The position numbers and the translations under genes were made by a program. From the NCBI GenBank assembly GCA_964016885.1, contig OZ024741.1:64046001-64110000 (forward strand): a stretch of DNA of 64,000 nt. Reading direction: 5' to 3'. The notes beneath the pieces were generated by a model. It was not told the DNA's origin. It made no database searches and was given only the letters and a program-made list of their open reading frames with translations. The first letter of the stretch is position 1. Each line of letters starts with the position of its first letter. This DNA comes from Eledone cirrhosa. Its lineage: Eukaryota. Of this stretch, positions 47,888 through 47,981 are shown one piece after another.

Positions 47888-47981
47888 ACCCCTTGAGAAG
47901 ATCGGCTATTTAAATACCAGGATAAATTTTCATTTAGTCCAGAATTAGCCGTCGAAACGGCTTGAGCTCAGCTGTCGGGGT
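47888..47981 (+). ncRNA. Type I hammerhead with U3-A8 covariant core (TTGAGAA) and full helix III
   Basis: acccc/ggggt stem I; ga(t)cggcta/tagccgtc stem II; GAAA cggct/agctg TC. Confidence 0.8.

Follow-up and report, generated by a model that had tools for sequence, protein, structure and literature searches.

The window, the whole stretch of 64,000 nucleotides of Eledone cirrhosa DNA that was analysed, contains a hammerhead ribozyme motif of type I with a U3-A8 core and a GUC site, which was confirmed as real. Its parts are the following.

47888..47981, forward strand: type I hammerhead ribozyme motif, found by descriptor search and folding
47893..47899, forward strand: catalytic core, positions 3 to 9, with U3 at 47893 and A8 at 47898
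47900..47953, forward strand: stem II, 8 bp with one bulge, and a 37-nt loop region that includes a weak inner hairpin
47958..47974, forward strand: helix III, 4-5 bp, closed by a loop that holds an 8-nt palindrome at 47963-47970
47974..47977, forward strand: GUC triplet and predicted cut, between C17 (47976) and G (47977)

Stem I consists of 5 bp between 47888-47892 and 47977-47981, the core reads U3 U4 G5 A6 G7 A8 A9, the strands of stem II are 47900-47908 and 47946-47953, and GAAA (47954-47957) follows stem II directly on its 3' side. Three helices surround the core and the open ends lie in stem I, as in type I hammerheads, and the core follows the pattern N3 U G A N N8 A ... GAAA, positions 3 and 8 being Watson-Crick partners (here U3-A8), next to a predicted cut site of the UH type (here GUC). 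Both the core TTGAGAA and the GUC site of the preliminary description are present at these positions. Its statement that all stems are well paired holds for the minimum free energy (MFE) fold, which is the hammerhead itself (-22.7 kcal/mol; 11 pairs checked, with probabilities of 0.47-0.97), but not for the sister subfamilies, in which stem II position 10.2 is A, C or U and the constant part of this stem is limited to G10.1-C11.1 and its distal 6 bp. The folding energy is ordinary (z -0.96), 32 of 200 shuffles folding equally well. A strict hammerhead descriptor applied to both strands of the window matched only at 47888-47981. A looser descriptor gave four matches in the window, with scores of 20, 20, 18 and 12, and the best of 12 shuffles, whose lengths may differ as the shuffle walk may stop early, scored 14. 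No hammerhead was matched in Rfam at the gathering score in the whole window, or at E values up to 10 between 46000 and 50000, which is likely due to the long stem II insert and the variant core. The microRNA matches found in Rfam were rejected as microsatellite noise. C3-G8 hammerheads with a small helix III were also seen in the window at 39930 (+), 43903 (-) and 46458 (+), two of them copies of one family.

This hammerhead is not a lone gene, as it ends a truncated copy of a Penelope-like retroelement.

47718..47995, forward strand: 5'-truncated copy, 278 bp, of the 3' repeat (pLTR) of a putatively Hydra-type Penelope-like retroelement, delimited by repeat comparison
47993..47996, forward strand: short 3' end of the insertion, with TAT common to insertion and target
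47994..48038, no strand assigned: (TA)n microsatellite target, the same context as in most copies
47566..47717, reverse strand: head-to-head neighbour, of which 47566-47642 is the end of another repeat with an 18-bp duplication

The 278-bp copy is 99-100% identical to 40 other genomic places (the best 40 of 1,823 candidates scored), and longer copies of the family extend upstream into an ORF with GIY-YIG and reverse transcriptase (RT) motifs. Tandem arrays define a unit of 3,542 bp with an open frame of 786 codons carrying both motifs, and since all 57 ORF copies scored are 99-100% identical, the family is young. The arrays comprise up to five full units, near-identical within an array (for example G000:C1:91473243-91487413); units differ by 0-4 positions per 1,500 nt within an array and mostly by 7-14 between arrays (0 in one pair), which is compatible with a rolling circle and with a tandem source alike. 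The element protein contains RWR at 104, DKT at 184, a CxCx5C linker, YRDD, VIY/YIG, CxxC and CxH. Like endonuclease-positive Penelope-like elements, it combines RT (YRDD) with GIY-YIG (VIY, YIG) at the C terminus in a single ORF, and the family has tandem and inverted copies, pLTRs, an optional tail and 5' truncation.

The protein marks of the Hydra clade are listed in the part of Craig et al. 2021 (PMC8557442) drawn on here. The element shares with this clade RW[K/R] and DKT (RWR and DKT here, GxKF/Y being absent), the CxCx5C linker in the absence of CCHH, CxxC and CxH around the endonuclease E/N (with one Cys between VIY and YIG), the C-terminal GIY-YIG, the (TA)n target and a hammerhead near the end. 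By its protein motifs and its target, the element would therefore belong to the Hydra type, although its unit of 3.54 kb is longer than the Hydra elements described in that source, which are generally under 3 kb. A Neptune-like label was dropped, as the CX2-5CxxC linker and CCHH are absent from the protein. A non-LTR retrozyme was also rejected, the window holding a single copy that is part of a coding element and not short non-coding tandem units. The element protein had no match in Pfam and only an irrelevant one in NCBIfam (E 0.1). Its 17,327 protein relatives are all unnamed, and DK[T/S] is found in 29 of the closest 30.

Family copies lie within (TA)n, frequently in inverted pairs, and stop approximately 20 or 100 nt beyond the cut site: among 103 copies, 52 have the short 3' end, 50 run into a tail of ~80 nt and one ends otherwise. 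These two classes match the two internal priming sites of a Penelope element of Anolis, for which reverse-transcription initiation at two sites was shown in vitro (PMC11167929, cited in part), and the 3' end at 47993..47996 may thus correspond to the proximal reverse-transcription start. As to the neighbour, its part at 47566-47642 matches the window at 42503-42568, 46197-46256 and 44118-44144, shares an 11-nt tail motif with the family of the window copy and likely belongs to a different Penelope family. A search of the E. cirrhosa genome with the upstream neighbour, in which common words were skipped, gave no match. The end of another repeat family lies at approximately 42507-42645 (-) of the window; it carries a degenerate C3-G8 hammerhead and shares the tail motif of the window family, and its tail also adjoins the studied copy head-to-head at 47566-47642. 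Elsewhere in the window, a 6.6-kb CAC/CAA triplet array with an extreme strand skew spans 20022-26651.

The family consensus is U3-A8 and not C3-G8, this pair being present in 2,199 of 2,239 cores (98%). The natural U3-A8 hammerhead proposed in the preliminary description is thereby borne out, and the copy ends described below point to activity. However, U3-A8 was not borne out as surprising: hammerheads of this type have been published for Penelope elements, with approximately 1,300 matches in Schistosoma mansoni (PMC4209133), and U3-A8 is accepted as an active variant found in other natural hammerheads (PMC3088659; both sources cited in part). The pair itself is therefore of little importance, being already in print. 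At least two more U3-A8 hammerhead families are found in the E. cirrhosa genome, two dissimilar ones with a fully palindromic helix III having been seen at L109:504, L327:2628 and L161:2831. About a dozen C3-G8 families were seen among the flanks of genomic copies.

Among the sister subfamilies, the first 100 of 3,789 cores comprised 64 U3-A8, 33 C3·A8, 2 U3·G8, 1 A3·A8 and no C3-G8. Core position 7, a G in the window copy, is G, C, U or A across these subfamilies, the stems being kept. An exact pattern, which undercounts old copies, found 9 C3-G8 copies of the clade genome-wide, scattered among C3·A8 copies in such a way that 7 changes are needed on the tree to explain them. A recent C3-G8 parent family was thus not found (none of 100 sampled cores and only 9 scattered copies). 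Two unrooted trees were built from short alignments, one of 93 rows with position 3 masked and one of 50 chosen rows with positions 3 and 8 masked. In both, the window's family falls within a U3-A8 clade (95/85) that is itself nested among C3·A8 subfamilies forming a grade, and the other U3-A8 families lie outside this clade. Published Hydra hammerheads have C3-G8 in 26 of 26 rows (PMC8557442 File S2), so that positions 3 and 8 both changed at some depth; given the nesting among C3·A8 subfamilies, the most recent step was likely only one change, C to U, in a mismatch that had been tolerated. The earlier argument from a double compensatory change is thereby weakened: both positions changed, but C3·A8 spread widely. 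As the mismatched state was amplified to this extent, the 3-8 pair was likely not needed for spread. An inverted pair of stubs of sister family B, starting near -41 and missing the core, was seen in the window at 2261-2450 (1,186 candidates genome-wide); full copies of family B have a U3-A8 core with C7.

The 5' ends of the family copies bear on whether the ribozyme cuts. Exactly at the predicted cut (position +1), 316 copies start, compared to 29 at -3 and 25 at +5, the two control positions counted per family; the -3 control covers about three quarters of the family, and the filter on the flanks was stricter at +1 (~0.50 versus 0.65). Inspection of +1 copies showed true truncations in 29 of 30 and, in one, an A-run inserted exactly at the cut. 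An extra G was present in only 45 copies at +1; the ends at this position therefore look uncapped, and a capped start there was rejected. In addition, 72 places depart from the family sequence right after C17, and 5 of the 30 read had an A/T-rich insert between C17 and the next G, followed by normal sequence, a count made without a control position. The copies spanning the site number 14,370, so that cleavage is partial in any case, +1 starts amounting to only ~2% as counted and ~4% after correction for the filter.

In sister family D, which is mostly C3·A8 and was counted in its long-tail copies, 7,440 copies span the site and 101 start at +1, compared to 34 at -3 and 47 at +5. The excess of +1 over +5 is stronger in the window family (odds ratio 5.9, Fisher p 4e-11), and relative to spanning copies the +1 starts amount to 2.2% in the window family and 1.4% in family D, a 1.6-fold difference. 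The 3-8 pair therefore likely aids cleavage, as judged from these counts. However, family D is still 2-3-fold over its controls at +1, and 22 of 28 stub loci carry the tail letter linked to C3·A8 (3 are U3-linked and 3 unscored), so that part of the signal does not hinge on the 3-8 pair of the copy itself. Such a remainder could reflect residual activity or cleavage in trans, or the peak may be partly non-catalytic in origin. About 7 of 30 family D loci inspected were mutants or internal deletions. Many family D copies were also seen with two or three changed letters after C17, counted without a control, which may reflect imprecise rejoining or plain mutation.

These ends could also arise if the motif descended from a hammerhead but had little or no activity in vivo, the +1 starts coming from RT stalling or from joints at the G-run and three-way junction. 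The persistence of the +1 excess in the mostly mismatched family D, the share of mismatch subfamilies (about a third of sister cores) and the presence of some 5' ends at -5 to -1 agree with such an origin, as does the in vitro dispensability of cleavage for another element, the Anolis one, whose ribozyme mutants were without effect on insertion (PMC11167929, cited in part). In the same excerpt, no RNA-seq reads of the Anolis element begin or end at the cut. An early look at ORF-bearing copies of the present element gave 56 5' ends (5 of them repeats within one array), with 6 between -5 and +3, too small a number for either view, and in RNA data from one run (3 contigs) no contig lay over the ribozyme. 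We nevertheless consider an inactive motif unlikely, for +1 starts are about ten times as many as those 4 nt away in either direction, A-rich inserts lie exactly at the cut and the excess is weaker where the 3-8 pair is broken. Moreover, 25 of the first 100 +1 matches are preceded by CC and one A/T, mostly as head-to-head pairs with both arms ending at +1, and these pairs share the geometry of the cap-end joints described below. The hammerhead RNA thus likely cuts itself in vivo at the GUC, in a minority of the element RNAs.

Most family copies start further upstream, at a position that falls within the ribozyme.

47936..47936, forward strand: putative capped transcription start of the family, 40 nt before C17, in the stem II loop region

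The full core is estimated to be present in only about 3,000 of the 14,370 spanning copies, and most copies are therefore short stubs. The 5' ends of 73 short spanning copies sampled from 40 regions, excluding sites already known as long copies, all fall between -44 and -5, with the mode at -40. Just before A(-40), 2,929 copies have a non-native G and 567 an A, several subfamilies being pooled, and in 242 head-to-head joints, compared to 25 in the control, both arms carry the extra G and lie 0-1 nt apart. Copying of a cap is expected to leave such an added G. The site reads T(T/C)AGT and resembles the insect initiator. We infer from these ends that the family RNA likely starts, capped, inside stem II of its own ribozyme.

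An alternative would be that a splice acceptor, or a strong stop of reverse transcription, creates the wall at -40, in which case the promoter would lie upstream and all RNAs would carry the whole ribozyme. A YAG follows a pyrimidine run at -41 to -39, the ends scatter from -44 to -34 and some of the extra Gs may derive from the inverted arm. Penelope elements also have 5' introns, the one of Drosophila Penelope ending at helix I and putting the start upstream of the ribozyme (PMC4209133, cited in part). However, no common upstream exon was found among the junctions examined, and neither the initiator-like site nor the joints with an extra G on both arms are accounted for in this way; an internal promoter is described for Drosophila Penelope (PMC2377424, cited in part). 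Splicing or a stop is accordingly improbable as the cause of the -40 wall, to about the same degree as an inactive motif is for the +1 ends.

The GAGCUC core of the loop III palindrome is kept in the three commonest forms. Co-folding of two whole ribozymes gave dimer-type hammerheads at -62.1 kcal/mol, compared to 2 x -22.8 kcal/mol as monomers, and co-folding of a whole ribozyme with the half that begins at -40 gave a dimer-type hammerhead at -54.1 kcal/mol (-22.8 and -14.8 alone). Because loop III is palindromic, activity as a monomer is not established, and Penelope hammerheads are reviewed as dimer-acting (PMC6765202, cited in part). The loop III stretch is also where downstream promoter elements would lie, so that its conservation has two possible causes. 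An explanation along the lines of the preliminary description would be an efficient monomeric ribozyme in which the U3-A8 pair arose as a selected double change. The monomer hammerhead is indeed the MFE fold, with its helix III of 4-5 bp, and the near-fixation of U3-A8 in the family together with the uniform C3-G8 of the Hydra clade, which implies changes at both positions, would suit this explanation. It is nonetheless the least probable of those considered, as the whole uncut ribozyme is retained in thousands of copies, the C3·A8 state was amplified, the clade has no C3-G8 subfamily and the loop III palindrome is kept.

Taken together, we favour, with a probability of about 0.68, a Penelope terminal-repeat hammerhead that would cut a minority of the RNAs at the GUC, with a capped start inside stem II and two primed sites. 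The main RNA would start within stem II, and its 5' end would hold only the substrate half of the ribozyme, that is GAAA, helix III, GUC and the 3' strand of stem I. A whole ribozyme would form only where transcription runs into the next repeat, and the palindromic loop III would let it cut a half-ribozyme in trans. Reverse transcription would begin at two internal sites, one ~20 nt and the other ~100 nt beyond the cut, with priming in (TA)n. The roughly 11,000 short stubs would result from run-off at the cap, the stubs starting at the cut from run-off at a cut end, and long copies such as that of the window from uncut or rejoined RNA. The role of the ribozyme would be to trim read-through RNA to unit length, partially, and it would likely not be required for transposition. 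A more far-reaching version, which we regard as tentative, places the promoter inside the hammerhead and has the half-ribozyme RNA cut in trans via the palindromic helix III; the +1 starts and the A-filled rejoined ends would record such cuts, and the C3·A8 subfamilies would be a natural mutant series that kept spreading and that intact relatives may have cut until the pair was regained.

The closest hammerheads known are those of the Cercyon elements of Schistosoma mansoni (Cervera and de la Pena 2014, PMC4209133), which are alike in the type I motif of the pLTR, the U3-A8 core, the short stem I, the long stem II, in which a base close to the 5' end is unpaired, and the mostly truncated copies. 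They are minimal, with little or no helix III, whereas the present one has 4-5 bp and an 8-nt palindromic loop, and the main text of that source, as far as it is cited here, holds no copy-end evidence of cleavage, whereas copy ends were counted here. The C3-G8 hammerheads in the 26 Hydra rows combine a CUGA core with a small helix III, and the descriptor of PMC8557442 would likely miss U3-A8. The Poseidon element PAc of Anolis (Frangieh et al. 2024, PMC11167929) is similar in its two internal RT starts bounding the tail, its AT-rich target and its upstream hammerhead. However, its ribozyme is minimal, C3-G8, overlaps the ORF start and needs protein, and for PAc, the one reconstituted element, no cut ends were found in vivo. 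Here, unlike in PAc, the tail is ~80 nt, TAT is common to the target and both 3' ends, and copy ends accumulate at the predicted cut.

Non-LTR retrozymes (bioRxiv 10.64898/2026.07.22.740005, cited in part) also have a type I hammerhead related to those of Penelope pLTRs; they are non-coding tandem repeats, whereas the window holds a single truncated piece of a coding element. At another locus (L161, G000:C2:356029500-356032900), seven 299-bp units made of the family's ribozyme, tail and ORF start were seen, with stem II shortened by a deletion, and this array looks like a retrozyme arising from the present element. The ribozyme of R2 sets the R2 5' junctions, and R2 relies on a host co-transcript. 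The HDV-like ribozyme of R2 (PMC6765202, cited in part) is similar as a retroelement ribozyme that frees the element RNA from a longer transcript. Unlike in R2, starts at the cut account for only a few percent of the copies of the present family, most of which begin at the likely capped site.

What hammerheads do in Penelope-like elements is described as unclear (PMC8557442, cited in part). In the literature searched, mostly papers outside subscription, we found no report of copy ends piling up at the cut of a Penelope hammerhead, nor of a start site inside one. The present hammerhead is known in kind, and the more interesting part appears to be the family-level evidence from copy ends, start site and mismatch series. 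If the copy-end signal reflects cleavage, it would be in vivo evidence obtained from DNA alone, by a method usable for any high-copy family, and the family would supply natural core variants with U3-A8, C3·A8 and U3·G8. If transcription starts inside the ribozyme, this would also account for the element not removing its own cap.
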